Origin: Hyphomicrobiales bacterium
GTDB taxonomy: Bacteria > Pseudomonadota > Alphaproteobacteria > Rhizobiales > NORP267
Assembly (NCBI GenBank): GCA_021775855.1
Contig: JAJFGZ010000002.1
Coordinates: 5,723 to 69,722, forward strand
Direction: 5' to 3'
Length of the DNA stretch: 64,000 nucleotides
In this document: piece by piece, positions 9,787 through 21,257 of the stretch
Layout: each line of letters begins with the position of its first letter
Position numbering within the stretch: position 1 is the stretch's first letter
Notes under the pieces: model-generated
What the model was told of the DNA's origin: nothing
The model's database searches: none
Seen by the model: only the letters and a program-made list of their open reading frames with translations
Program-made: the position numbers and the translations under genes

Positions 9787-9843
9787 CCGGATTTGTGGCG
9801 GTTCATCTGTACAGAGACTTATAACCCCGATAATCTTGCTGCC

Positions 9844-10599
9844 ATGTGGAATCGCAGTCGGCTTTTTCGCTGGGCCAGACAAGGTGGTTGGCTCGCCGCC
9901 GCAACCTTGCTTGTGACTCCCCTCGCCTCCATCCATGCCGGAGAAATGCTCGCCCCCGAAGACCGGACCGGCTATTCCTTCATTTCGCTGCAGATCGGCG
10001 GCGCCATTCCCGACCCGGTAAAATCAACTGTATCAAACACCGCCGGCGCGGCATTCTCTGGCCGACAAGAAGTAAATTTCAATTCAGGCATCATCCTCGA
10101 TCTGTTGTACGGCAGGTATTTCACCGACCGGTTGCATGGCACGGTGAAATTGACTTACAGCCGTGGAGTTCCTTCCACGATCTCGAACGTATCCGGTTTT
10201 ACGGGAAACCCCCTTGCCGGTCTCACTGTGCCCGCTGCCGGATCCGGTAGCGCGATCGGGGTCGCGGCGGACCTGCGATACGATTTTGCGAAATACGATA
10301 ACGGTGCGCGGCTTTACGCAGGCGCGGGGGTGATCGCATCCCGGCTGACAATGACAAACCTTGGGCCGGAACCTAGCCCGTTTCACATCAGCGACAGCGA
10401 CATGGCCTACGCGCTTTGTGCGCTGACGGGTTTCAGTATCCCGGTCGCACAAAACCTCGAATTTATCGCGCAATATACAGCGGCCCTGGTATCGGGGACC
10501 TCCTACAGGTCGACAATCGGGCCAAACACGCTCTCCGTCAGCACACGAACTGATTTACGGCATATCGGCACGATCGGATTTCGATTTCTGTTCAACTGA
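9844..10599 (+). CDS. Outer-membrane beta-barrel protein (OmpW/OmpA-barrel-like)
   Basis: Signal peptide MWNRSRLFRWARQGGWLAAATLLVTPLASIHA. The sequence shows alternating amphipathic beta-strand patterning and an aromatic C-terminus (IGFRFLFN). Confidence 0.6.
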   Translation: MWNRSRLFRWARQGGWLAAATLLVTPLASIHAGEMLAPEDRTGYSFISLQIGGAIPDPVKSTVSNTAGAAFSGRQEVNFNSGIILDLLYGRYFTDRLHGTVKLTYSRGVPSTISNVSGFTGNPLAGLTVPAAGSGSAIGVAADLRYDFAKYDNGARLYAGAGVIASRLTMTNLGPEPSPFHISDSDMAYALCALTGFSIPVAQNLEFIAQYTAALVSGTSYRSTIGPNTLSVSTRTDLRHIGTIGFRFLFN

Positions 10600-10640
10600 A
10601 TTCGCATCAAACAATCTATCGCAAACGGGGAGCTGCAATC

Positions 10641-10883
10641 ATGACTGAAGAAACTACCGGCGTCGCGATGTGGAGAAGAATTCTGGCTTTCGTGCTGGAT
10701 TTGATCACCAGTTTTGCCGGGTTTGGGTATCTCGTCGCCCGCTTTACGGGCGGTCTTACTGAAAGCGGTTTCCAGTTGGACGGTGCGCCGGCATTGTTGT
10801 TGTTCGGCCTTGTAATCGGGTACTTTGTTGTCACCCGTTATATTGGGGGGACAATCTGGCAGCGTATTTTGCGCGCCAGGTAA
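10641..10883 (+). CDS. Small two-TM membrane protein (RDD-like)
   Basis: 80 aa. WRRILAFVLDLITSFAGFGYLV and ALLLFGLVIGYFVV are hydrophobic helices. GGGGAG lies upstream of the ATG. The family assignment is tentative. Confidence 0.45.
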   Translation: MTEETTGVAMWRRILAFVLDLITSFAGFGYLVARFTGGLTESGFQLDGAPALLLFGLVIGYFVVTRYIGGTIWQRILRAR

Positions 10884-11006
10884 TCTCCTTACAGATATCC
10901 GGTTTCCGACCTTTCTATTCATTGACGTTGCGGTCAATTCATATTCTATTGGTCGTTTCCGCTCGGTGAGACTACATCCCGAACCGGGAGGCAGGGGATC
11001 GGATAC

Positions 11007-12272
11007 ATGACGCGCAACGAGCAGGCAGACGCCAAACACATCGTTCTGACATCGCATCCGCCGCGGCGCGCGAATTCTGCCATTCCCCTCAACTGGGACG
11101 AGGCAGACCCGATCAAGCGCGGACCTGTCATCGGCACCCTGACAAAACCTGGCGACCGGAATGTCATTGGTTCCCATTCCGGTGGATACGCCATTTATCG
11201 CGCGCTCGCCGTTGCCGCCGGAACGCTCGACCCCGACCATAAAGCCGACCTGACAAATACCAGCCCCACCAATAAAATAGGGCCACATCCCCAATGGAGC
11301 GAACCGGGCCGCATCGTATCGCTCGATCCGTGGGGCCATATGGTGGCCGACGTATTCGGCGATCTGATTGCACAGGGGATTGATATCCGCCCCTCGATCG
11401 CGATCACCAAGGCGCGGATCAACATGCCCGAATTTCCGGAAGCCACAAAGACCGGGCGGCTGGTTCCGGACGGCAAGGTTTTGCAGGACAATGGCGATGT
11501 GAACGTAACGAAGGTCGCGATCGAACCGATCTGGCATCTGCCTGGTATTGCCGCGCGGTTTGATATTACGGAAAATGAATTGCGCCGGAAATTGTTCGAA
11601 CATACAGGTGGCATGTTTCCCGAACTTGTGACCCGCCCGGACTTGAAAGTGTTCCTGCCTCCGATTGGCGGCATGACGGTCTATGTTATCGGCAAATTTG
11701 AGGGGCTTGCAGACCCGTCCACAAAAGTTGCCTGCCGGGTCCACGATGAATGCAATGGCTCTGACGTGTTCGGATCCGATATCTGCACCTGCCGGCCCTA
11801 CCTCGCCCACGGCATCGAGGAATGCATCAAGATGGCGCAATCGGGCGGGACCGGGCTTGTGGTCTATAACCGAAAAGAGGGCCGCGCACTTGGCGAGGTC
11901 ACAAAGTTCCTGGTCTACAACGCCCGCAAGCGCCAGAAAGGCGGGGACACGGCAGACAAGTATTTTGAGCGCACCGAATGCGTCGCCGGGGTTCAGGATA
12001 TGCGGTTCCAGGAACTGATGCCGGACGTCTTCCATTGGCTCGACATCAGGCGGATCGACCGCTTTATGTCCATGAGCGATCTGAAGCACGATGCGTTGGT
12101 GCGGCAAGGGATCGAGATCATCGAGCGCGTGCCGATCCCTGACGAGTTGATCCCCTCGGACGCCCAGGTCGAGATGGACGCAAAGAAAGCTGCGGGCTAT
12201 TTTACGGACGATTCCGTATCAATGCCGACCGAGCTTGATGCCACCAAAGGGCGCAACCTTGACGACTATTGA
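11007..12272 (+). CDS. GTP cyclohydrolase II family protein with a long N-terminal domain (URC1-like)
   Basis: The C-terminal half aligns by eye to RibA. The zinc triad is in RVHDECNGSDVFGSDICTCRPYL, followed by YNRKEGRALG and IEIIERVPIP. An extra domain of about 230 aa precedes it. Confidence 0.8.
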   Translation: MTRNEQADAKHIVLTSHPPRRANSAIPLNWDEADPIKRGPVIGTLTKPGDRNVIGSHSGGYAIYRALAVAAGTLDPDHKADLTNTSPTNKIGPHPQWSEPGRIVSLDPWGHMVADVFGDLIAQGIDIRPSIAITKARINMPEFPEATKTGRLVPDGKVLQDNGDVNVTKVAIEPIWHLPGIAARFDITENELRRKLFEHTGGMFPELVTRPDLKVFLPPIGGMTVYVIGKFEGLADPSTKVACRVHDECNGSDVFGSDICTCRPYLAHGIEECIKMAQSGGTGLVVYNRKEGRALGEVTKFLVYNARKRQKGGDTADKYFERTECVAGVQDMRFQELMPDVFHWLDIRRIDRFMSMSDLKHDALVRQGIEIIERVPIPDELIPSDAQVEMDAKKAAGYFTDDSVSMPTELDATKGRNLDDY

Positions 12273-12282
12273 GGTTGGCAAG

Positions 12283-13494
12283 GTGGTAACAGCCGCCAAT
12301 TTGCTGTTAACGCCGGAAGCCGTACGCCTGCGCGCACAACAATTCCTTGCCCTTGCCCGAGAAGATCGGTTGCGCAATTTCGTTCTCCGGGAAGAGAATT
12401 TGCCTGGCGCCAGTGAGCATGTGATCCACCTGCTCAACGCCCGGTTTCCAGACAGAAAAGTTCCGTTCCACGCCCGTTGGCGGCATTTCGAGGTTGCCGG
12501 CATAGACCGGGCTGCGCTGCTATTGACAGGAATAGAGGGCCGCTTTGAAAAGGCCCGGGCACGCTTCGATTTGGCGATCACCAGCGTGCTTTTGGATGCG
12601 GGTGCGGGCGACAAATGGTTCTACCGAGATTCAAATGGTCAACAATTCAACCGCTCCGAAGGCCTCGCGGTTGCGAGCCTCGATATGTTTGGCGCGGGGT
12701 TTTTCGCGCTGGACAAGAAATTGTTGCAGGCCGACGCCAGCCGACTGTCGGCGTTACGGGAAAGCGATATGGCAGCTGCTTTCCAGGTCTCGCGCGATAA
12801 CCCGCTTACGGGTCTTGCTGGGCGGGTGGCACTATTGTCCTCATTGGGTCGCCGGGTTTTAGAGGCACCTGAATTCTTCCCTGGCGATACACCCCGACCC
12901 GGTAATTTGTTTGATTACCTGCGGACAAAAATAGACGGGAAGGAATTGGCCGCGCGCGAGATCTTGATTGCATTGCTGCATGCCCTTGGTCCGATCTGGC
13001 CGGATCGTTTATCCCTGGAAGGCATACCGCTCGGCGATACATGGCGCCACGCCCAGGCGAGCGGTGGTGATTTGCCTGACGGCTACATCCCTTTTCATAA
13101 ACTGTCGCAATGGCTGGCCTATTCCCTGATCGAACCGCTCCAGGAGGCCGGGGTCACGGTTACGGGGATTAACGCGCTGACCGGCCTGGCGGAATACCGG
13201 AATGGGGGCCTGTTCGTAGACTATGAAATCGTCCAACCGCGTCACAACGACATTTTGACAGACATCCATGAACCGGACAGTGACGTAATCATCGAATGGC
13301 GCGCGTTGACGGTAGCGTTGTTGGATGCAGTCGCCGATCTGGTACGTGATAATCTCAGTCTGGACGCCGAAAGTTTACCGCTCGCGAGCGTACTCGAAGC
13401 CGGAACCTGGGCAGCCGGCCGGGAGATTGCACAGGCAAAACGTCTAAATGCAGCGCCACCCATTGCGGTGTCCGCAGATGGTACGGTATTTTAA
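12283..13494 (+). CDS. URC4/urg3 family protein (DUF1688)
   Basis: Matches my recollection of DUF1688 N-termini ([14 protein letters not shown] ... [15 protein letters not shown]). Start is placed at GTG 12283, which has GAGG 8 nt upstream and lies 10 nt after the upstream stop. ATG 12238 is the alternative and would overlap by 35 nt. Confidence 0.72.
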
Positions 13495-13543
13495 GTTCAG
13501 GGATCGCACGATTGGGCTGCGGCAAACCAAGGGAATAATAATA

Positions 13544-14176
13544 ATGAGCGACAATCTGGTAGTGATTGATCACCCACTCGTGCAGCACAAACTATCCCTG
13601 ATGCGGGAAAAGAATACGCCGTCAGCGACGTTCAGAATGTTGCTGCGCGAGATCAGCCTGTTGCTCGGGTATGAGGTTCTGCGCGACCTGCCGCTTACCA
13701 CGAAGTCGATCGATACGCCGCTACAGGAAATGGACGCGCCGGTTCTGAAGGGGAAGAAACTTGTCTTTGTGTCTATTCTTCGGGCCGGCAATGGTTTGCT
13801 CGACGGCCTGCTCGATCTGGTACCGTCTGCGCGCGTCGGCCATGTGGGGCTCTACCGGGACCCGGAAACTCTGCAGGCTATCGAATATTACCTGAAGCTC
13901 CCTGAGGACATGGAATCACGCATCTGCATCGTGGTCGATCCCATGCTGGCCACCTCCAATTCGGCGAGCGCGGCGATTACCCGCCTCAAGCAAGCGGGCG
14001 CACAAAATATCCGCATGGTCTGCTTGCTGGCTGCGCCCGAAGGCGTCAAGGCACTCGGGGAAGCCCACCCTGACGTCAAGGTTTATACCGGAGCGCTCGA
14101 CACCCATTTGAATGAACACGGCTACATCGTGCCGGGTCTCGGCGATGCGGGAGACCGCATGTTCGGCACCAAGTAA
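13544..14176 (+). CDS. upp: Uracil phosphoribosyltransferase
   Basis: [25 protein letters not shown] is a canonical Upp N-terminus. The PRPP loop is [12 protein letters not shown], and the C-terminal motif is [12 protein letters not shown]. Confidence 0.93.
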
Positions 14177-14186
14177 CAGTCGATCG

Positions 14187-15113
14187 ATGCCGGGCCCCAT
14201 TCTGCCTGTTATCCTTTGTGGCGGCGGGGGAACTCGGCTCGCGCCGTTGTCGACGCCTGAATGCCCAAAACAGTTTCTGGAATTGTTTCAGAACAACCCA
14301 CACAGTCTGTTCGAGCGCACTTTGTCGCGGCTTTCCGCCGCGCCGGACATTCTACCGCCACTGATCATCGGGAATATTCAACACCACGAATTGATCCGTG
14401 ATCAGATCGGTGGTGCCGCGGCGAGCGTGATCCTTGAGCCGGTCGCCAGAAACACAGCACCGGCCGTCGCGATTGCCGCCCATTGGGCCAGGCTACATGT
14501 GCCCGAAGCTACTCTTGTCGTTATGCCCAGCGACCACGTGATCGGGGACCTTGCTACATTTCAAATAGATTTGATCAACGCGCGCCGCATCGCGAATGAC
14601 GGTTATATCGCTGTGTTCGGTGTCAAGCCTGACTGGCTTGAAACCGGGTACGGATATATCGAACCCGGTGCAGAAATTGAGGCGAACGGCGCTTCTGCGC
14701 ATTACGTCGAGGCATTTGTCGAAAAACCTGATCTGGCTACCGCGCAACGCTATCTCGATGACCAGACAAAATACTGGAATAGCGGAATTTTCGTTTTCAG
14801 TGCGACAACCATGCTTGCTGAGTTCGAAAGGTACGCCCCGGAAATCGTCAATCGGTCGGCGGCGGCGCTTCAAGAAGCCGAGGCGCGCAATCCGGCCCTT
14901 GTCCTGGCGCTGAGCGAATACGAAATGCTGGATCCAATTTCGCTGGACTATGCAATCATGGAAAAGACCAGCGTCGCGGCTTTGGTCCGGTTTTCCTCCC
15001 ACTGGCGGGACCTCGGGTCAATCGAAGCGTTGAGAGTGTTTTCGTCTTCGACCTCGGCAACAACCGATCCAGTGTCCCTGAAAGTTCAGACTTTTCTGGA
15101 TGGCAACGGCTGA
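14187..15113 (+). CDS. Mannose-1-phosphate guanylyltransferase-type nucleotidyltransferase (short form, no C-terminal cupin/PMI domain)
   Basis: The N-terminal motif PVILCGGGGTRLAPLS...PKQF is present. Start is at ATG 14187, 10 nt after the upp stop. Confidence 0.75.
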   Translation: MPGPILPVILCGGGGTRLAPLSTPECPKQFLELFQNNPHSLFERTLSRLSAAPDILPPLIIGNIQHHELIRDQIGGAAASVILEPVARNTAPAVAIAAHWARLHVPEATLVVMPSDHVIGDLATFQIDLINARRIANDGYIAVFGVKPDWLETGYGYIEPGAEIEANGASAHYVEAFVEKPDLATAQRYLDDQTKYWNSGIFVFSATTMLAEFERYAPEIVNRSAAALQEAEARNPALVLALSEYEMLDPISLDYAIMEKTSVAALVRFSSHWRDLGSIEALRVFSSSTSATTDPVSLKVQTFLDGNG

Positions 15114-15347: not shown

Positions 15348-16133
15348 CTAAAACACCCTTGCCTGTGAAACATCAACCTTGAATACGAGGATATCGTCGA
15401 GCCGCTCGATCTCGCCTTCAAGCTGAACCATAATTGCCACAAGGTCGTAAAATTCATCGGGCAGAGGACCGCCATTCTCATCGGCCAGCAAGAAGAACGA
15501 GGTCCCCTCCACTTCCCCGGTCGAGACAAAGACCGGGGGCACCCCGCCAATCAGACAAAGATTGGCGCAGGCCCGATGTGCTATCCCGGTGCCGGGACGC
15601 ATGGCGCCCCCATAGCATTTGCCGTCGCAGATCTCGCCCGACAACCGCCATCGCCCAAGGGATACCGGCGGGGCCGGGGTAAAAGCGCGCTGGAGATCCG
15701 TCAGGCCTTCGTCGGCCGGCACAAGCGCCTGTCCCCTGAGCTGGAGCATATCCATGTCGCCACGCGACAGAAAAAAGCCTGATGCATTGACAACTTGATC
15801 CCCCAGCTGAGCGGCCCGGTCCTGCAATCCAGCTTTTCCCGGCGCCGTCAGCATCAAGGTCCGTGGTTCCGGATGGCCTTCCGATGGCGCCGTTCTCAAA
15901 ACCGGGTAAGGCAGTTCTTGGACCACCCCCACAAATTGCTGCATATTGTTGCGCCCTCCGACAAAACGGCCATCACCGGGATCGCTGGTATTGCTGCCAA
16001 TCGCGAAGGACAGAGCCGCCATGCCGATAAGGATACCGAGCGTGGCCGCGAGCGAGAAGATGATCAGCGGCGCCTGGACGCGGTTAACATAGCCAACAAA
16101 AAAGGGTCGTTCCGGGGTGTGACTGGACATCAT
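15348..16133 (-). CDS. Membrane-anchored protein of unknown family with paired CxxxC motifs
   Basis: 261 aa. The start forms an ATGA overlap with the upstream gene at 16130-16133. There is one N-terminal TM helix (PLIIFSLAATLGILIGMAALSFAI). The soluble domain contains CDGKC and CANLC. Confidence 0.65.
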   Translation of the reverse strand: MMSSHTPERPFFVGYVNRVQAPLIIFSLAATLGILIGMAALSFAIGSNTSDPGDGRFVGGRNNMQQFVGVVQELPYPVLRTAPSEGHPEPRTLMLTAPGKAGLQDRAAQLGDQVVNASGFFLSRGDMDMLQLRGQALVPADEGLTDLQRAFTPAPPVSLGRWRLSGEICDGKCYGGAMRPGTGIAHRACANLCLIGGVPPVFVSTGEVEGTSFFLLADENGGPLPDEFYDLVAIMVQLEGEIERLDDILVFKVDVSQARVF

Positions 16134-17188
16134 GCAGCTCCTGGTACCTGGATGGGTTCAACGCGGGTTCCTGGCGCACAGGCTTGTGGGTCAAGCAGCA
16201 CCTGGTCGCCTTTCAACTTCAACCTGTAGGTCGCAATTTTCTCAGTAAACGGCGCCGGGGCACGGCCATCCTCGACCCGGTACTGGAATCCGTGCCAGGG
16301 ACAGGTCACGCAGCCATCGATGATCCGCCCCTCACCGAGCGGGCCGTTCTGGTGGGCGCAGACGTTCGATAGCGCGGATAATTTATTGCCGTGGCGGAAC
16401 ACCGCGACCCGCTCGTCGCCTTCCAGCGATACAATGACCGCACGATCCAGGGGAATGTCATCGACGGCACCGGCGATAACCCAGGAGGACGTATCATCGG
16501 TTTCCGCCGCTGCCCGGTCTTTTCGCCGCTCGGCTCGCCCTGCCAGGAAATGCAGCCCCGCCACCGCCATGCACGAAGTCACCACGACCATCGCAAAAAT
16601 GGGGTTGGCGGCTGCCTGAAGGTACCCAAGCGAGACGTGCAACACGATCAATGTATACGCCACGTAGACCGACATATGGATGGCTTTCCACACCCCAGGG
16701 GTGAGGAAATGCATCCAGAAATCGTGGCTTGTAACCGCCATGACCAGCAAAATCAGCAGAGCAAATACACCGAATAATTCGAAAGGAAACCCTAAAAATT
16801 GACCGAAACTGGTGTTGGCGCCCAGTACAGCCGCATATTTGTCGATCGAGCTGAATGAAAAATAGATGCTGATCACATATGTCGCGTGAACAAAGGCAAC
16901 AGCGCAGGTAATCACGCCAAAATGCCGTCGGTTATAGAGAAGAGGCAAGAAGCGGGTATCGAGACGCGCCAGCGGCCCTATACACAGGATCATGGTCAGC
17001 ATTAGAAATGCACACGTCCCAAATGCCTGAGCCTTGAAGATCGCGCCACTGACGCGGCGCGTAACTTCCTGAAAACTCGGTGTCAGCTCGACAAATATGA
17101 ACACATAGCCGAACACCATGATGAGCAGGATAAGATCGTAAATGATCTTGTTCGAATTCCAGGTAACCGGGGTGTATTTAACGCTCAT
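16130..17188 (-). CDS. Ferric-reductase-like (MsrQ/YedZ-type) six-TM domain fused to a C-terminal Rieske [2Fe-2S] domain
   Basis: The N-terminal ~210 aa is polytopic with conserved His in helices (FVHATYV, SHDFWMH, AIHMSVY, VLHVSLG). The C-terminus has CAH-x16-CPWH, encoded at 16292-16360. Confidence 0.8.
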   Translation of the reverse strand: MSVKYTPVTWNSNKIIYDLILLIMVFGYVFIFVELTPSFQEVTRRVSGAIFKAQAFGTCAFLMLTMILCIGPLARLDTRFLPLLYNRRHFGVITCAVAFVHATYVISIYFSFSSIDKYAAVLGANTSFGQFLGFPFELFGVFALLILLVMAVTSHDFWMHFLTPGVWKAIHMSVYVAYTLIVLHVSLGYLQAAANPIFAMVVVTSCMAVAGLHFLAGRAERRKDRAAAETDDTSSWVIAGAVDDIPLDRAVIVSLEGDERVAVFRHGNKLSALSNVCAHQNGPLGEGRIIDGCVTCPWHGFQYRVEDGRAPAPFTEKIATYRLKLKGDQVLLDPQACAPGTRVEPIQVPGAA

Positions 17189-17349
17189 TGGTCTGTCCCT
17201 CCGGCTTGCACCGGCGCTTCCAATAGCCTGGCCGGGCGTTCGATCGGGCCGTTCTGGCGGATAAACGTTGCCGCGACCAGGATGGCTGGTAGCAGGACGG
17301 CCAGCAAGGTCCAGATGCGGGCATGCGCGGTTCTATGACGGCGTTGCAT
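17185..17349 (-). CDS. 54-aa single-TM protein (not in the ORF track)
   Basis: My own translation gives MQRRHRTAHARIWTLLAVLLPAILVAATFIRQNGPIERPARLLEAPVQAGGTDQ*. GGGGGGAG lies upstream of ATG 17349. The stop forms an ATGA overlap with the start of the downstream gene at 17185-17188. Confidence 0.55.
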   Translation of the reverse strand: MQRRHRTAHARIWTLLAVLLPAILVAATFIRQNGPIERPARLLEAPVQAGGTDQ

Positions 17350-17353
17350 AATT

Positions 17354-17569
17354 CTACTCCCCCCGCTGTGTTTCGAGTTTGAGCCAACGCCAGAGAACCA
17401 GGGGCCACAACACGACGATGCCCGGTATCAAAAGCGCACGAAAGCCAAATGCCTGGTGCGAAGATGGGTCAATCCGGTCGATCCCGAACATCAGGAACGG
17501 CACAGAAACAGCCGCCCCGATATACCCGTAGATCTTCACGATTTCGATGATTTGAAGTGCGAGTTCCAA
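17354..17569 (-). CDS. 71-aa two-TM membrane protein
   Basis: Start is placed at TTG 17569, preceded by GGAGGG at 17575-17580. The track start at 17674 would overlap the upstream gene by 47 nt. Hydrophobic segments are IYGYIGAAVSVPFLMFGI and ALLIPGIVVLWPLVLW. Confidence 0.55.
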   Translation of the reverse strand: MELALQIIEIVKIYGYIGAAVSVPFLMFGIDRIDPSSHQAFGFRALLIPGIVVLWPLVLWRWLKLETQRGE

Positions 17570-17627
17570 TTGATCCCTCCAATCTGAACCTGTTTCGAAT
17601 TCGATTTTTCCCCTCGCCGTCTTTCCA

Positions 17628-19607
17628 TCAGACAAGGTCCGCGTCGGTAATAATCTCGACCAGCGCCGGGCCATCGTAGGCCAACGCCGCCTTCAGGGCT
17701 GGCTCAATCGCGACTGTCGCCGTGACTTTTGTTCCATGACCGCCGCACAGGCGGGCAAAAGCGGCGAATGACGGGTTGTGCAGGTTGGTTTCCCAGACCG
17801 GCCATTCACCGGCACGTTGTTCTTTCGATATTTTGCCAAGCTCTGAATTGTTGAGCAGGATGTGGGTAATGTCCATGCCGTATTTGACGGCCGTGGTGAA
17901 ATCCATCGGGTATTGACCGAAGCCGCCGTCGCCGGATATCGAGATCACCTTGCGGCCCTTATATTCGTCAAAATCCTGGGTTGCGGCCCAGGCACCCATG
18001 GCGGCTGGGAAACCGAATCCGATGGACCCCAGATATCCGGACATCAAGACCCGCTGGCCTTTTGTTTCGAAATACCGGCCGAATGAATACGTATTGTTGC
18101 CAACGTCCGCCGCGATAATTGCGTCGTCGGGACAAAGCTCACTCAGGTGCTTGAATATGGCAGCGGAATGAATCCCTTGCCCGCGTTCTTCCTGCAACCG
18201 GGAGGTTTTTTCATCGCGCCAGATGCGCCACCGTTCTACCAACTCCTTGATCTGATCGTCGGCGGCTTTTGGCAATGATAGCCGGGGCATGACCGCTTCG
18301 CAGAACGCCCCGATCTCGCCCCAGATTGGCAACTCCACGGGGTGAAACTTGCCAAGCTGCATGCGCTCGAAATCCACCTGGATGATCGGTTTCGAGCGCT
18401 CGATTCCGGTATGATTGGCGAACGACGATCCAAGCGCAATAATCAGATCCGCTTCGTTCATAAACCAACTCGCGACCGGCGTGCCGGATCGGCCCAAAAC
18501 ACCTGCGGCGTTCGGATGGGTGTCTGATATCAGCCCCTTGCCCTTGAACGTGGTCAGGACCGGAGCGCCCAGTTTCTCGGCCAATTCGATCACCGCAATC
18601 CGGGATTCAACCGCGCCGTGGCCAATGATGACGATGGGGCGCTTGGCGCTGTTGATCAATGTTGCTGCGCGGTCGAGATCGTCGGATGCCGGGATCACAA
18701 CGTGCCCACCAACCCGTCCGTCCGGGTTTCCGGCAGCGGCGGCACTCGGTTGGGTCTGGATATCGTCGGGAAAAATAAGGTGTGAGACATCGTGCTCCAG
18801 CAACGCCGTCTTGCAGGCAAGTGACATGAGTTCGGCATGATTGGAGGTGGACAGCACTGGCTGCGAGAACCGGGCAACGGCACCAAAGGCCGCGTGCAGA
18901 TCGATATCCTGGAAAGCGCCCGGACCAAATACCTGCGTTTGGACCTGGCCAGTGAGCGCCAATACCGGCGCGCGGTCGACCTTGGCGTCCCACAACCCGG
19001 TCATCAGGTTGGTGGCGCCCGGCCCGGCGATCGTCAGGCACGCCGCCGGTTTCCCGGTCAGTTTACCGTAGGCCGAGGCCGCGAAAGCCGCCGCGCCCTC
19101 GTGGCGCACGCCGATATAATCGAGCTCGTTATCGTTAGTGCGGCGGCGTATAGCATCCGACAGACCGAGGTTGGAATGCCCGACCATCCCGAAGACGCGC
19201 TTGACCCCCCAGTTGACCATGGTCTCCGCCATGACATCAGTCGTCGTTCGCTCGTGATCGGGTTCAGCCTCCAGCCCGACGAAAATTTCGCCATCACGTA
19301 TTTCGACGGGGTAGAGCTGCTGGCCAGAATCTTCATGACCGCCGGGAGGGGCACCGGTGAGCGGGTGAAAATCCCAGCCGTGCCACGGACACCGTATCCA
19401 GCATTCGCCATCAACACCGGTCTCAATCGAACCTTCGCCAAGCGGACCGCCCTGATGGGGGCAATGGTTGTTCATGGCGGCCCATTTGCCATCAAAATGC
19501 GACAGGCAGATCGATACGGTTCGTGCGGTCACGGTTTTGACCCGACCTTCCGGCAAGTCATCTTTGTGCCCGACACTTATCCATTCAATTTTCTTATCTA
19601 CCATCAT
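17628..19607 (-). CDS. N-terminal Rieske [2Fe-2S] domain fused to a thiamine-diphosphate enzyme (pyruvate oxidase/acetolactate synthase family)
   Basis: The Rieske motif CPH-x21-CPWH is encoded at 19380-19463. A TPP PYR domain follows (GVKRVFGMVGHSNLGLSDAI). The ThDP motif GDGGFGQYPMDFTTAVKYGMDITHILLNN is also present. Start is at ATG 19607 or 19604, after AGGGAAG. The track start at 19634 is a TTG. Confidence 0.85.
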   Translation of the reverse strand: MMVDKKIEWISVGHKDDLPEGRVKTVTARTVSICLSHFDGKWAAMNNHCPHQGGPLGEGSIETGVDGECWIRCPWHGWDFHPLTGAPPGGHEDSGQQLYPVEIRDGEIFVGLEAEPDHERTTTDVMAETMVNWGVKRVFGMVGHSNLGLSDAIRRRTNDNELDYIGVRHEGAAAFAASAYGKLTGKPAACLTIAGPGATNLMTGLWDAKVDRAPVLALTGQVQTQVFGPGAFQDIDLHAAFGAVARFSQPVLSTSNHAELMSLACKTALLEHDVSHLIFPDDIQTQPSAAAAGNPDGRVGGHVVIPASDDLDRAATLINSAKRPIVIIGHGAVESRIAVIELAEKLGAPVLTTFKGKGLISDTHPNAAGVLGRSGTPVASWFMNEADLIIALGSSFANHTGIERSKPIIQVDFERMQLGKFHPVELPIWGEIGAFCEAVMPRLSLPKAADDQIKELVERWRIWRDEKTSRLQEERGQGIHSAAIFKHLSELCPDDAIIAADVGNNTYSFGRYFETKGQRVLMSGYLGSIGFGFPAAMGAWAATQDFDEYKGRKVISISGDGGFGQYPMDFTTAVKYGMDITHILLNNSELGKISKEQRAGEWPVWETNLHNPSFAAFARLCGGHGTKVTATVAIEPALKAALAYDGPALVEIITDADLV

Positions 19608-19646
19608 CTTCCCTATCCCAGCATTGTCCCGCAACCAGCTACAGCT

Positions 19647-21257
19647 TTACGCGACGCCGCCGAACTGAATGCCGGACAATTCGGCCATGTCTTTTTTCCA
19701 GGTCGTCAAATCATCCGCATTGAAATTCGACAGATGATCGTGGCCGCACGCGCGCGCCATAACCTGCATCAGTTCGACGGAGGCTTCGAAAAAATTCTTG
19801 AGCTGGATTGCGGATTTTTCGACAACCAGGCGGCTGATCAGATGCGGTTTTTGCGACGCGATCCCGACCGGGCAATTATTGGTGTGGCAAGCCCGCATGG
19901 CGATGCAGCCGATCGCCTGCATCGCGGAATTGGAAACCGCGACCGCGTCGGCACCGAGCGCCATGGCCTTGATAAAATCGGCCGGTTTCCGCAACCCCCC
20001 GGTAATGACCAAGGTGATATTTCCGGGGCCATTCGTATCCAGATGCTGCCTTGCGCGGGCAAGGGCGGGGATCGTCGGCACCGATATATTGTCGCGAAAA
20101 ATAATCGGCGCCGCGCCAGTGCCACCACCGCGCCCGTCGAGGATGATGTAGTTGACACCGACCTCCAGTGCCGCGTCGATATCATTCTCGATATGCTGCG
20201 CGGATAACTTATACCCGATGGGGATACCCCCAGTGCGGTCGCGCACCTCGTCGGCAAAGTCCTTGATCTGGCTGACTTCGGTCCAGTCAGGAAAACGCGG
20301 TGGGGATATTGCGTCTTCGCCTTCGTTCAATCCGCGGACAGCAGCGATCTTGCCTTTGACCTTGGGACCCGGCAGATGCCCGCCGGTTCCGGTTTTGGCG
20401 CCCTGCCCACCCTTGAAATGGAACGCCTGGACTTTGGCCAACTTGTCCCAGTCGAACCCGAAGCGGGCAGATGCCAGTTCATAAAAATACCGGGAATTGG
20501 CCTGCTGCTCCTCGGGCAACATGCCGCCTTCGCCGGAGCAGATCCCGGTTCCTGCCAATTCGGCGCCGCGCGCCAGCGCCACCTTGGCTGGTTCCGAAAG
20601 CGCGCCGAAGCTCATGTCGGACACAAAAAGCGGGATATCGAGCTTCAGCGGTTTTTGCGCGTTGGGGCCGATCACGACATCGGTCGCGACTGCATCATTG
20701 TCTAGTAGAGGTGGAGTGGCAAGCTGTGCCGTGACGATCTGGATATCGTCCCAGTTGGGTAATTCGCCGCGTGGTACCCCCATGGCGTCGACCTTGCCGT
20801 GGTGACCGGTCTTGGATAGTCCGTCACGGGCGTATTGTTGGATCAGGCCGTTATAGGGCTCTTCCTCGGTCCCGTGGGAGGTGTCGGCGTAGAGGCCCAG
20901 ATAATCGTCGCGCTGGAACGGTTGAGGGTTTGCCTCGGCCCAGACGCCTATTTCATCTTCGTCGACGAGAATTTCACCCTTCTCGATCCACGACAAAAAT
21001 TTTGGCAACACCTCTTCATTGGCATATTCGGACACGCCGGTATCGAGGCGGTAATCCCAGTAATGCACGCCACAAATCAGGTTGTTGCCACGTACGAAAC
21101 CGTCTGACATGAGTGCACCGCGGTGCAGGCAACGTCCATAAAATACGGACACCTCTTCGTCGATCCGGACAACGACGAGGTCAACCTCGCCGACAAGCGC
21201 GTATTCCGGCTTCCGGTCTTTAAGATCATCAAATTTTGCAACTGACACTTTATTCAT
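19647..21257 (-). CDS. N-terminal Rieske [2Fe-2S] domain fused to a glutamate-synthase-type FMN/Fe-S domain (GltB domain 2-like)
   Basis: The Rieske motif CLH-x16-CGVH is encoded at 21063-21131. The GltS FMN-domain motifs are FHFKGGQGAKTGTGGHLPG and LDGRGGGTGAAP. The Cys cluster is C-x5-C-x4-C (GCIAMRACHTNNCPVGIASQ). Confidence 0.85.
   Translation of the reverse strand: MNKVSVAKFDDLKDRKPEYALVGEVDLVVVRIDEEVSVFYGRCLHRGALMSDGFVRGNNLICGVHYWDYRLDTGVSEYANEEVLPKFLSWIEKGEILVDEDEIGVWAEANPQPFQRDDYLGLYADTSHGTEEEPYNGLIQQYARDGLSKTGHHGKVDAMGVPRGELPNWDDIQIVTAQLATPPLLDNDAVATDVVIGPNAQKPLKLDIPLFVSDMSFGALSEPAKVALARGAELAGTGICSGEGGMLPEEQQANSRYFYELASARFGFDWDKLAKVQAFHFKGGQGAKTGTGGHLPGPKVKGKIAAVRGLNEGEDAISPPRFPDWTEVSQIKDFADEVRDRTGGIPIGYKLSAQHIENDIDAALEVGVNYIILDGRGGGTGAAPIIFRDNISVPTIPALARARQHLDTNGPGNITLVITGGLRKPADFIKAMALGADAVAVSNSAMQAIGCIAMRACHTNNCPVGIASQKPHLISRLVVEKSAIQLKNFFEASVELMQVMARACGHDHLSNFNADDLTTWKKDMAELSGIQFGGVA

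Follow-up and report, generated by a model that had tools for sequence, protein, structure and literature searches.

Counterparts of the gene cluster considered here are known from fungi. In the yeast Lachancea kluyveri growth on uracil as nitrogen source depends on the URC genes, urea and 3-hydroxypropionate are the products of the pathway (PMC3869809, PMC7530994), and URC4 degrades ribosylurea to urea (PMC7530994; the same step in yeast is also stated in PMC8709784). Schizosaccharomyces pombe carries the same triad as the uracil-induced cluster urg1-urg2-urg3, in which urg3 is the DUF1688 protein (PMC2174524), and a passage in a paper that cites the 2008 URC study describes URC1 and URC4 as conserved in many bacteria. 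In this work we analysed a 64,000-nucleotide (nt) stretch of DNA from a Hyphomicrobiales bacterium (GenBank assembly GCA_021775855.1, contig JAJFGZ010000002.1, positions 5,723 to 69,722), hereafter the window, whose first letter is position 1 in all coordinates below. Three genes at 11007-14176 of this window probably form a bacterial URC-type uracil catabolic operon that would work by the four-step route proposed below, and the protein encoded by the middle gene, a member of the DUF1688 family, very probably shares, judging from modelled structure and profile alignment, the fold and catalytic strategy of the nucleotide N-glycosylase Qng1.

Two further systems serve as reference points for the comparison. 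Qng1, an enzyme of queuine salvage, is a monomeric queuosine-5'-phosphate N-glycosylase of helix-hairpin-helix (HhH) fold whose biological substrate is a nucleoside 5'-monophosphate and which is weakly active on the nucleoside; its catalytic pair consists of K199 and D231, the phosphate is contacted by R80, Y232, K233 and Q306, and the free carboxylate of an invariant C-terminal Tyr completes the active site, C-terminal tags being found to inactivate the enzyme (PMC9881137). The second is the Rut regulon of Escherichia coli, whose regulator RutR recognizes the consensus TTGACCAnnTGGTCAA and is released from DNA by uracil (PMC2475637).

At 11007-14176 the window contains three same-strand open reading frames (ORFs) in series, a URC1-like gene (urcA), a DUF1688 gene and upp, and both the ORF list and the translations bear out the first-pass annotation of this DNA, which had described three adjacent homologues on one strand. 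The urcA gene (11007..12272, + strand) begins with ATG and encodes 421 residues, in which Pfam places GTP_CH_N (PF12471; E 9e-82) at residues 10-199 and GTP_cyclohydro2 (PF00925; E 4e-15) at residues 227-376. The DUF1688 gene (12238..13494, + strand) has an ambiguous start. ATG 12238, the choice of the gene caller on the identical contig L001, gives 418 residues and a 35-nt overlap with the end of urcA, while GTG 12283 gives 403 residues, is preceded at 8 nt by GAGG and begins 10 nt past the urcA TGA at 12270-12272; either start fits the earlier description of a gene that overlaps the urcA stop or begins about 10 nt from it. Its product matches PF07958 at E 5e-138 over profile positions 2-420 of 420, and its bacterial relatives are named ‘URC4/urg3 family protein’ by NCBI. 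The upp gene (13544..14176, + strand) encodes a 210-residue predicted uracil phosphoribosyltransferase, the counterpart of URC6, that matches UPRTase (PF14681) at E 1e-75, NF001097 at 288 bits against a cut-off of 114, and TIGR01091 at 272 against 208. We take ATG 13544, as read from the sequence, as its true start, the listed ORF at 13448-14176 being an upstream over-extension, and the gap to the DUF1688 stop is then exactly the 49 nt that had been claimed.

All three domain families proposed for the cluster were thus recovered, and these shared Pfam families, together with statements in the literature, support a reading of the three genes as bacterial counterparts of URC1, URC4 and URC6. Like the URC genes of L. 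kluyveri and the urg cluster of S. pombe, the triad combines the same three families, including a URC1-type protein with an N-terminal extension. Unlike them, the window genes form a tight operon, the first two overlapping or 10 nt apart and the third following after 49 nt, and the window yielded no URC2-type regulator, urea amidolyase (URC3,5) or URC8 reductase. Around the operon, scans for promoters and terminators did no better than on shuffled sequence.

By its sequence the first protein is a member of the uridine triphosphate (UTP) cyclohydrolase (UrcA) family. It aligns to two entries in the PDB, 7EEV and 7EJ3, at E 1e-183 with 66% identity over approximately 397 aligned residues (residues 8-419), and these entries, of 2021 and 2022, bear the titles ‘Structure of UTP cyclohydrolase’ (released 2021-07-28) and ‘UTP cyclohydrolase’ (released 2022-09-21); a Foldseek search with a poor AlphaFold2 (AF2) model of the window protein (predicted local distance difference test score, pLDDT, 55) served solely to obtain these titles. 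The solved enzyme is a non-fungal, bacterial-type protein. It shares with the window protein a two-domain architecture, a zinc Cys triad and nearly the same length (423-425 versus 421 residues), but comes from another organism, and the window protein is assigned to its family from sequence. The enzyme was reported by Zhang et al. (ACS Catalysis 2021, ‘Structural and biochemical investigation of UTP cyclohydrolase’). At 762 bits the window protein also lies far above the cut-off of 403 for NCBIfam PRK07198 (NF005536), and it belongs to a huge and highly conserved family of at least 8000 clusters, the best 120 of which are all 67-95% identical; a 12-member alignment has a mean column identity of 74%, and the best named relative, from a Rhodospirillales metagenome-assembled genome (MAG), is 72% identical. 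A review cites a study in which UrcA catalyses ‘the two-step hydrolysis of UTP’ in uracil breakdown (PMC9499338).

NCBIfam and most sources name this protein ‘GTP cyclohydrolase II’, and one alternative is that the 421-residue protein is a genuine GTP cyclohydrolase II (RibA) acting in riboflavin synthesis, its adjacency to DUF1688 and upp being incidental. The catalytic domain does share the RibA fold and retains the zinc Cys triad (C249 in HDECNG, C260 and C262 in CTC, aligned to the E. coli RibA ligands C54, C65 and C67), as had been noted at first pass together with the additional N-terminal domain of about 230 residues, here identified as PF12471. Equivalents of further E. coli RibA residues (PDB 2BZ0) are likewise kept, namely R244 for R49, R293 for R94, Y304 for Y105 and R333 for R128, so that the catalytic Tyr and Arg positions are present. 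Against this, the match to E. coli RibA is weak, local and of low identity (42 bits over only about 147 residues, versus 66% full-length identity to UTP cyclohydrolase), RibA lacks the 230-residue N-terminal domain, and the solved member of the window protein's own family uses UTP, not GTP. The protein also falls below every RibA or RibBA model cut-off in NCBIfam, scoring 41-62 bits where 148-764 are needed (NF001591, 62 versus 148; TIGR00505, 56 versus 206; RibBA models, 41-55 versus 486-764), no riboflavin genes (ribB, ribD, ribH, ribE) occur among the ORFs checked within about 10 kb or among the large ORFs scanned elsewhere in the window, and linkage to DUF1688 and upp is kept across at least five phyla. 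We therefore consider a RibA role to be excluded for practical purposes and the alternative extremely improbable, in keeping with the first-pass opinion that no riboflavin genes lie nearby and that such a role is unlikely. Nonetheless NF005536 (PRK07198), an equivalog-level model of NCBIfam release 20.0, bears the name ‘GTP cyclohydrolase II’, and the same name is carried over into JGI and NCBI records. This is likely a systematic misannotation of the UrcA family that affects riboflavin-pathway calls, and in metabolic reconstructions the label may falsely signal riboflavin capacity.

One of the retained RibA residues also bears on what UrcA might produce. In RibA, R128 is the nucleophile for pyrophosphate release. 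Since this residue is kept in UrcA (R333), the sequence would suggest that the product is most likely a 5'-monophosphate nucleotide.

To see how general the arrangement is, we surveyed genomes, taking one per species, and found at least 593 species with a URC1-like relative; to compare gene order, the window proteins were mapped by tblastn onto the best 80 loci. In 61 of these 80, from at least five phyla, a URC1-like gene, DUF1688 and upp follow one another on the same strand; 59 of the 61 were detected by script, and the other two (L015 and L076) have genes that overlap as in the window. DUF1688 directly follows urcA in 73 of 77 assessable loci. The loci span Alphaproteobacteria (Rhodospirillales, Microvirga, Kaistia, Bradyrhizobium, Azospirillum, Roseomonas and Micavibrio), Betaproteobacteria (Cupriavidus, Zoogloea and Uliginosibacterium), one gammaproteobacterium, Myxococcus, Oligoflexales, one planctomycete (Planctomycetota) and many cyanobacteria. 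A reverse survey of 80 metagenome loci anchored on DUF1688 gave a similar picture: urcA stands immediately before DUF1688 in 67 of 74 assessable cases and upp immediately after it in 62 of 72, and 56 of the 80 loci have the whole triad. Recurrence of the same order and strand at 61 of 80 genome loci and at 56 of 80 metagenome loci goes far beyond what chance would give. The neighbourhood is clearly conserved, contrary to the outcome that the first-pass annotation had named as refuting its reading, and the earlier reading as a URC-type pyrimidine catabolic core is supported.

Eight loci have urcA and DUF1688 without an adjacent upp (L018, L038, L044, L064, L007, L023, L025 and L043). The first four of these are from Kaistia, and loci of the Kaistia type, such as L044, carry an upstream phosphomutase of the PGM/PMM family, which suggests lineage-specific variants in ribose phosphate supply. 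In three others (L053, L056 from a Micavibrio MAG, and L067) the URC1-like gene has no DUF1688 within 4-10 kb of downstream DNA, and a search of these three for a non-orthologous replacement of DUF1688 gave no obvious candidate. L056 has upp approximately 850 nt downstream of its URC1-like gene, with an unannotated ORF in between, and a Nudix gene upstream.

The three activities can be arranged in a route in which ribose phosphate would hold the base while it is taken apart and would then be reused. First, upp would join uracil to phosphoribosyl pyrophosphate (PRPP) to give uridine monophosphate (UMP), which the housekeeping enzymes UMP kinase and nucleoside-diphosphate kinase, encoded outside the cluster, would convert to UTP. 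UrcA would then hydrolyse the uracil ring of UTP in two steps at a zinc-dependent active site of the GTP cyclohydrolase II type, taking off the C4-C5-C6 part of the ring and pyrophosphate and leaving ribosylurea 5'-phosphate; the three-carbon (C3) fragment would be released as malonic semialdehyde, giving 3-hydroxypropionate on reduction. The products assigned here to UrcA are those that the primary UrcA paper reportedly gives. DUF1688/URC4 would cut the N-glycosidic bond of ribosylurea 5'-phosphate to yield urea and ribose 5-phosphate, the latter being recharged to PRPP, while urea and the C3 product would be dealt with by genes outside the window. Three elements of this route are our inference: exactly which products UrcA forms, that the URC4 substrate carries a 5'-phosphate, and that DUF1688 acts as a glycosidase at all. 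Such a route would explain why a phosphoribosyltransferase sits in a catabolic operon and why phosphopentomutase and nucleoside transporters recur as neighbours (below), and its last step is in line with yeast, where the breakdown of ribosylurea has been assigned to URC4.

A glycosidase role for DUF1688 is suggested by its predicted structure. An AF2 model built from 35 family members is of high confidence (pLDDT 92.5; predicted template modelling score 0.91), and when it was searched against the PDB with Foldseek the top 11 chains were all Qng1 (DUF2419), at E 1.5e-9 to 5e-8 and probability 1.00, with template modelling scores of 0.58-0.63 normalized to the query and 0.72-0.75 normalized to the target. 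These matches comprise bacterial and human enzymes, including the complex with queuosine-5'-monophosphate (7U91). The next match, an archaeal 8-oxoguanine DNA glycosylase, is at E 0.17, leaving Qng1 as the only significant fold in the PDB. Profile comparison points the same way: hhalign of the DUF1688 profile with a 28-member Qng1 profile, built from PDB sequences, gave a probability of 87.8% and E 3.3e-6 over 225 columns. Foldseek and hhalign together indicate that the two families share a two-lobe HhH-glycosylase fold with Qng1-specific insertions.

The residue correspondence that emerges from hhalign (a mapping from profile alignment, not from superposed coordinates, with DUF1688 residues counted from GTG 12283) takes in catalytic and phosphate-contact residues of Qng1. 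The DUF1688 segment PFHK273LSQWL pairs with RFYK199RAQIL of Qng1, and LTGLAE304-Y305-R306 with LTAFAD231-Y232-K233, so that both families have the motifs F-x-K-x-[AS]-Q-x-L and L-T-x-h-A-[DE]-Y-[KR] at nearly equal spacing (31 versus 32 residues). Further pairings are W277 with I203, W376 with W302, R380 with Q306, and VEWRALT with VEIRAAT, and the DUF1688 residues concerned (K273, E304, Y305, R306, W277, W376, R380 and VEWRALT) are invariant in the family. In addition, all 35 aligned DUF1688 proteins end in an invariant D-G-x-x-F (...DGTVF) with Phe as the last residue, and an invariant aromatic residue therefore stands at the extreme C-terminus of both families (Qng1 ..IFY, DUF1688 F). By analogy with Qng1 the C-terminal carboxylate may have a role in the DUF1688 active site as well. 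If the model and mapping are right, DUF1688 would be a glycosidase with a Lys/Glu-Tyr-Arg active site completed by its own C-terminal carboxylate, and would represent a new branch of Qng1-like HhH nucleotide N-glycosidases.

The families are nevertheless clearly distinct. DUF1688 proteins are approximately 80-90 residues longer than Qng1 with about 14% identity, their genomic context is pyrimidine catabolism, not queuine salvage, and their base pocket differs, because the proposed leaving group would be urea rather than a 7-deazapurine. DUF1688 is not a member of the Qng1 family but a structural or superfamily relative only, since it has neither a PF10343 match nor a PDB sequence match, and these two negatives also head a number of observations that weigh against our proposal. 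No relative of DUF1688 was found among PDB sequences by phmmer, profile or fragment query; PF10343 (Q_salvage) gave no match at E up to 10 for four DUF1688 proteins, for which Pfam returned DUF1688 alone; and hhalign with a two-sequence Qng1 alignment was marginal, with 0.9% probability and E 0.064, the match turning convincing only when the 28-member profile was used. At the residue level, the acid aligned to the catalytic D231 of Qng1 is an invariant Glu (E304) and not Asp, and the position aligned to its phosphate ligand R80 is not conserved in DUF1688. Added to these are the yeast literature on the URC4 substrate and the S. pombe genetics, which we give below with the two alternatives on which they bear. 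With all of this in the balance, one reading is that URC4 is an N-glycosidase of the Qng1 type which acts on ribosylurea 5'-phosphate and so completes a carrier cycle of ribose phosphate; we put the chance that this is both correct and unpublished at a little short of even.

The first alternative concerns the phosphate. Yeast descriptions name ribosylurea, not its phosphate, as the URC4 substrate and have URC4 degrade it to urea (PMC7530994, PMC8709784), and URC4/DUF1688 could accordingly act on dephosphorylated ribosylurea, produced by a separate phosphatase, to give urea and free ribose. The weak activity of Qng1 on the nucleoside (PMC9881137) and the lack of conservation at the R80 position would sit well with such a substrate. 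Yet the biological substrate of Qng1 is the 5'-monophosphate, three other Qng1 phosphate contacts (Y232, K233 and Q306) correspond to the invariant Y305, R306 and R380, and neither a phosphatase nor a ribokinase is a conserved neighbour in the 80 genome loci. The pyrophosphate-release residue of RibA that is kept in UrcA likewise implies that the intermediate leaves UrcA as a 5'-monophosphate. We regard action on the free nucleoside as improbable and ribosylurea 5'-phosphate as the preferred substrate.

In other genomes the surroundings of the operon connect it with the use of pyrimidines, as seen when all ORFs of the 80 genome loci were clustered and the recurrent neighbours annotated. A RutR-like TetR gene, with a YcdC/RutR-type C-terminal domain, lies directly after upp in 18 loci, mostly betaproteobacterial; the best NCBIfam match of its product is RutR, at 200 bits and thus below the equivalog cut-off of 368. 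The regulator-bearing loci fall within L004-L060, for example L037 (9949-10764) and L030 (13835-15118). Just upstream of urcA, 20 loci have a RutR box of the TGACC-N4-GGTCA type that matches 11-13 of the 14 positions of the consensus, compared with about 2 expected from background, and the box of these related loci reads CTGACCATTTGGTCAG. The 20 comprise every one of the 18 loci that have the RutR-like gene; the other two are short contigs that stop ahead of where the regulator would be. A RutR-like repressor gene and a RutR box before the betaproteobacterial operon indicate that one type of uracil-sensing regulator has been recruited to two unrelated pyrimidine degradation pathways: the resemblance to the E. 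coli Rut regulon lies in the RutR-best-match TetR and its boxes, whereas the URC enzymes are unrelated to RutA-G.

Other recurrent neighbours are also concerned with pyrimidines and nucleosides. Cytosine deaminase (818 bits against a cut-off of 438) occurs in 11 loci, following the RutR-like gene/upp region, dihydropyrimidinase in 7, phosphopentomutase directly upstream in 8, and a nucleoside ABC transporter of the Bmp/PnrA type recurs as well. An unannotated protein of approximately 230 residues, with no Pfam or NCBIfam match, is encoded close to upp in 8 loci and stands between upp and the deaminase in that of Zoogloea (L030).

In the window itself, a candidate RutR-type operator, TTGACGTTGCGGTCAA (10922..10937, no strand), is found 69 nt upstream of the urcA start codon. 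This palindrome has RutR-box-like half-sites at canonical spacing and is the only TTGAC-N6-GTCAA in the 64 kb, where 0.05 would be expected. Its agreement with the consensus, 11 of 14 positions, is not significant by score alone, since eight window sites reach at least 11/14, and for that reason we regard it as a weak candidate only. Here the window departs from the Rut regulon and from its regulator-bearing relatives, as no RutR-like regulator gene was found in its 64 kb.

That absence is one of several that speak against a catabolic role in this particular organism. Among the window ORFs scanned, which took in only part of the smaller ones, there was no urease, urea carboxylase, malonic-semialdehyde dehydrogenase or 3-hydroxypropionate dehydrogenase, and no uracil transporter was seen among the same ORFs. 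With no urea-, C3-, transporter or regulator genes in the scanned window, catabolic use of uracil by this bacterium is at most predicted, and it is conceivable that the module serves instead to regulate or detoxify the pool of pyrimidine nucleotides or to remove UTP that is damaged or in excess, or that DUF1688 acts on a ring-opened intermediate as something other than a glycosidase. The next gene downstream, an unrelated sugar-nucleotidyltransferase, and the finding that deletion of S. pombe urg1 gives no growth phenotype with or without uracil (PMC2174524) could both be read in this way. Such a role is hard to square, however, with the RutR-type repressors, cytosine deaminase, nucleoside uptake and dihydropyrimidinase to which other bacteria link the operon, with the requirement for the L. 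kluyveri genes during growth on uracil as nitrogen source (PMC7530994), or with the invariance of the Qng1-like catalytic motifs in DUF1688, and we judge it quite unlikely. Uracil catabolism remains the function we favour for the window triad.

How much of this is new differs from one part to the next. The operon and its first enzyme, UTP cyclohydrolase, have already been described. The abstract of the 2008 URC study reportedly notes that bacterial URC1 and URC4 are linked with a uracil phosphoribosyltransferase gene, in which case this very observation has been in print since that time. The first-pass view of a poorly explored bacterial URC module has accordingly to be given up, given the NCBI name ‘URC4/urg3 family protein’ and the uracil-induced triad of S. 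pombe (PMC2174524). The same annotation had considered the chemistry of URC1 and URC4 to be unresolved; this does not survive for URC1, in view of the 66% identity to the ‘UTP cyclohydrolase’ entries 7EEV and 7EJ3, and it stands for URC4/DUF1688, where the chemistry is apparently still open in the searchable literature. The relationship of DUF1688 to Qng1 and the residue-level prediction were not found there: the papers that contain ‘DUF1688’ are not about Qng1, and neither DUF1688 nor URC4 is named in the Qng1 paper (PMC9881137). Nor did we find it reported in that literature that RutR-like regulators and RutR boxes pair one to one at the URC operon, or any discussion of the persistent equivalog name ‘GTP cyclohydrolase II’ for the UrcA family.

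As a gene cluster, then, the locus is ordinary, adding another instance of a widespread type of operon for uracil degradation, the key enzyme of which is known from a crystal structure. Its interest lies in DUF1688, a family of ‘unknown function’ in Pfam and the last uncharacterised core enzyme of the route, which gains a testable mechanism with named catalytic residues. If the mechanism is true, the DUF1688 label could be retired and a fourth pyrimidine catabolic route would be biochemically complete; the URC route would then run as a closed cycle with ribose phosphate as its carrier, would occur in at least several hundred bacterial species, and in betaproteobacteria would stand under RutR-type uracil sensors.

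The neighbours of the triad in the window are a metC-like gene, an EamA gene, unknowns and an NTP_transferase gene. The NTP_transferase gene (14187..15113, + strand; 308 residues; PF00483, E 1e-35) is mannose-1-phosphate guanylyltransferase-like, resembling the N-terminal half of that enzyme with no isomerase domain. It begins 10 nt past the upp stop and is probably co-transcribed with the URC genes, but it adjoins the triad only in the near-identical contigs L001 and L002 and in none of the 80 other genome loci (0/80), and thus lies outside the conserved URC module. Directly upstream of the operon, at 9793-10883 (+ strand), are two genes with no Pfam or NCBIfam match, one for a protein of approximately 251-268 residues and the other for an 80-residue hydrophobic and probably membrane protein; outside the near-identical contigs neither gene is conserved.

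The remainder of the window is chromosomal housekeeping, with genes for the pyruvate dehydrogenase complex, enolase, CTP synthase, KdsA, RecJ, GlpX, homoserine dehydrogenase, PhaC and lipoyl synthase. Apart from these, three consecutive Rieske-domain fusion proteins are encoded at 16130-21257 (- strand) with small ORFs interspersed: Ferric_reduct with Rieske (352 residues), Rieske with the N, M and C domains of TPP_enzyme (approximately 659-668 residues), and Rieske with Glu_synthase/FMN_dh (536 residues), which together make up an unusual combination.

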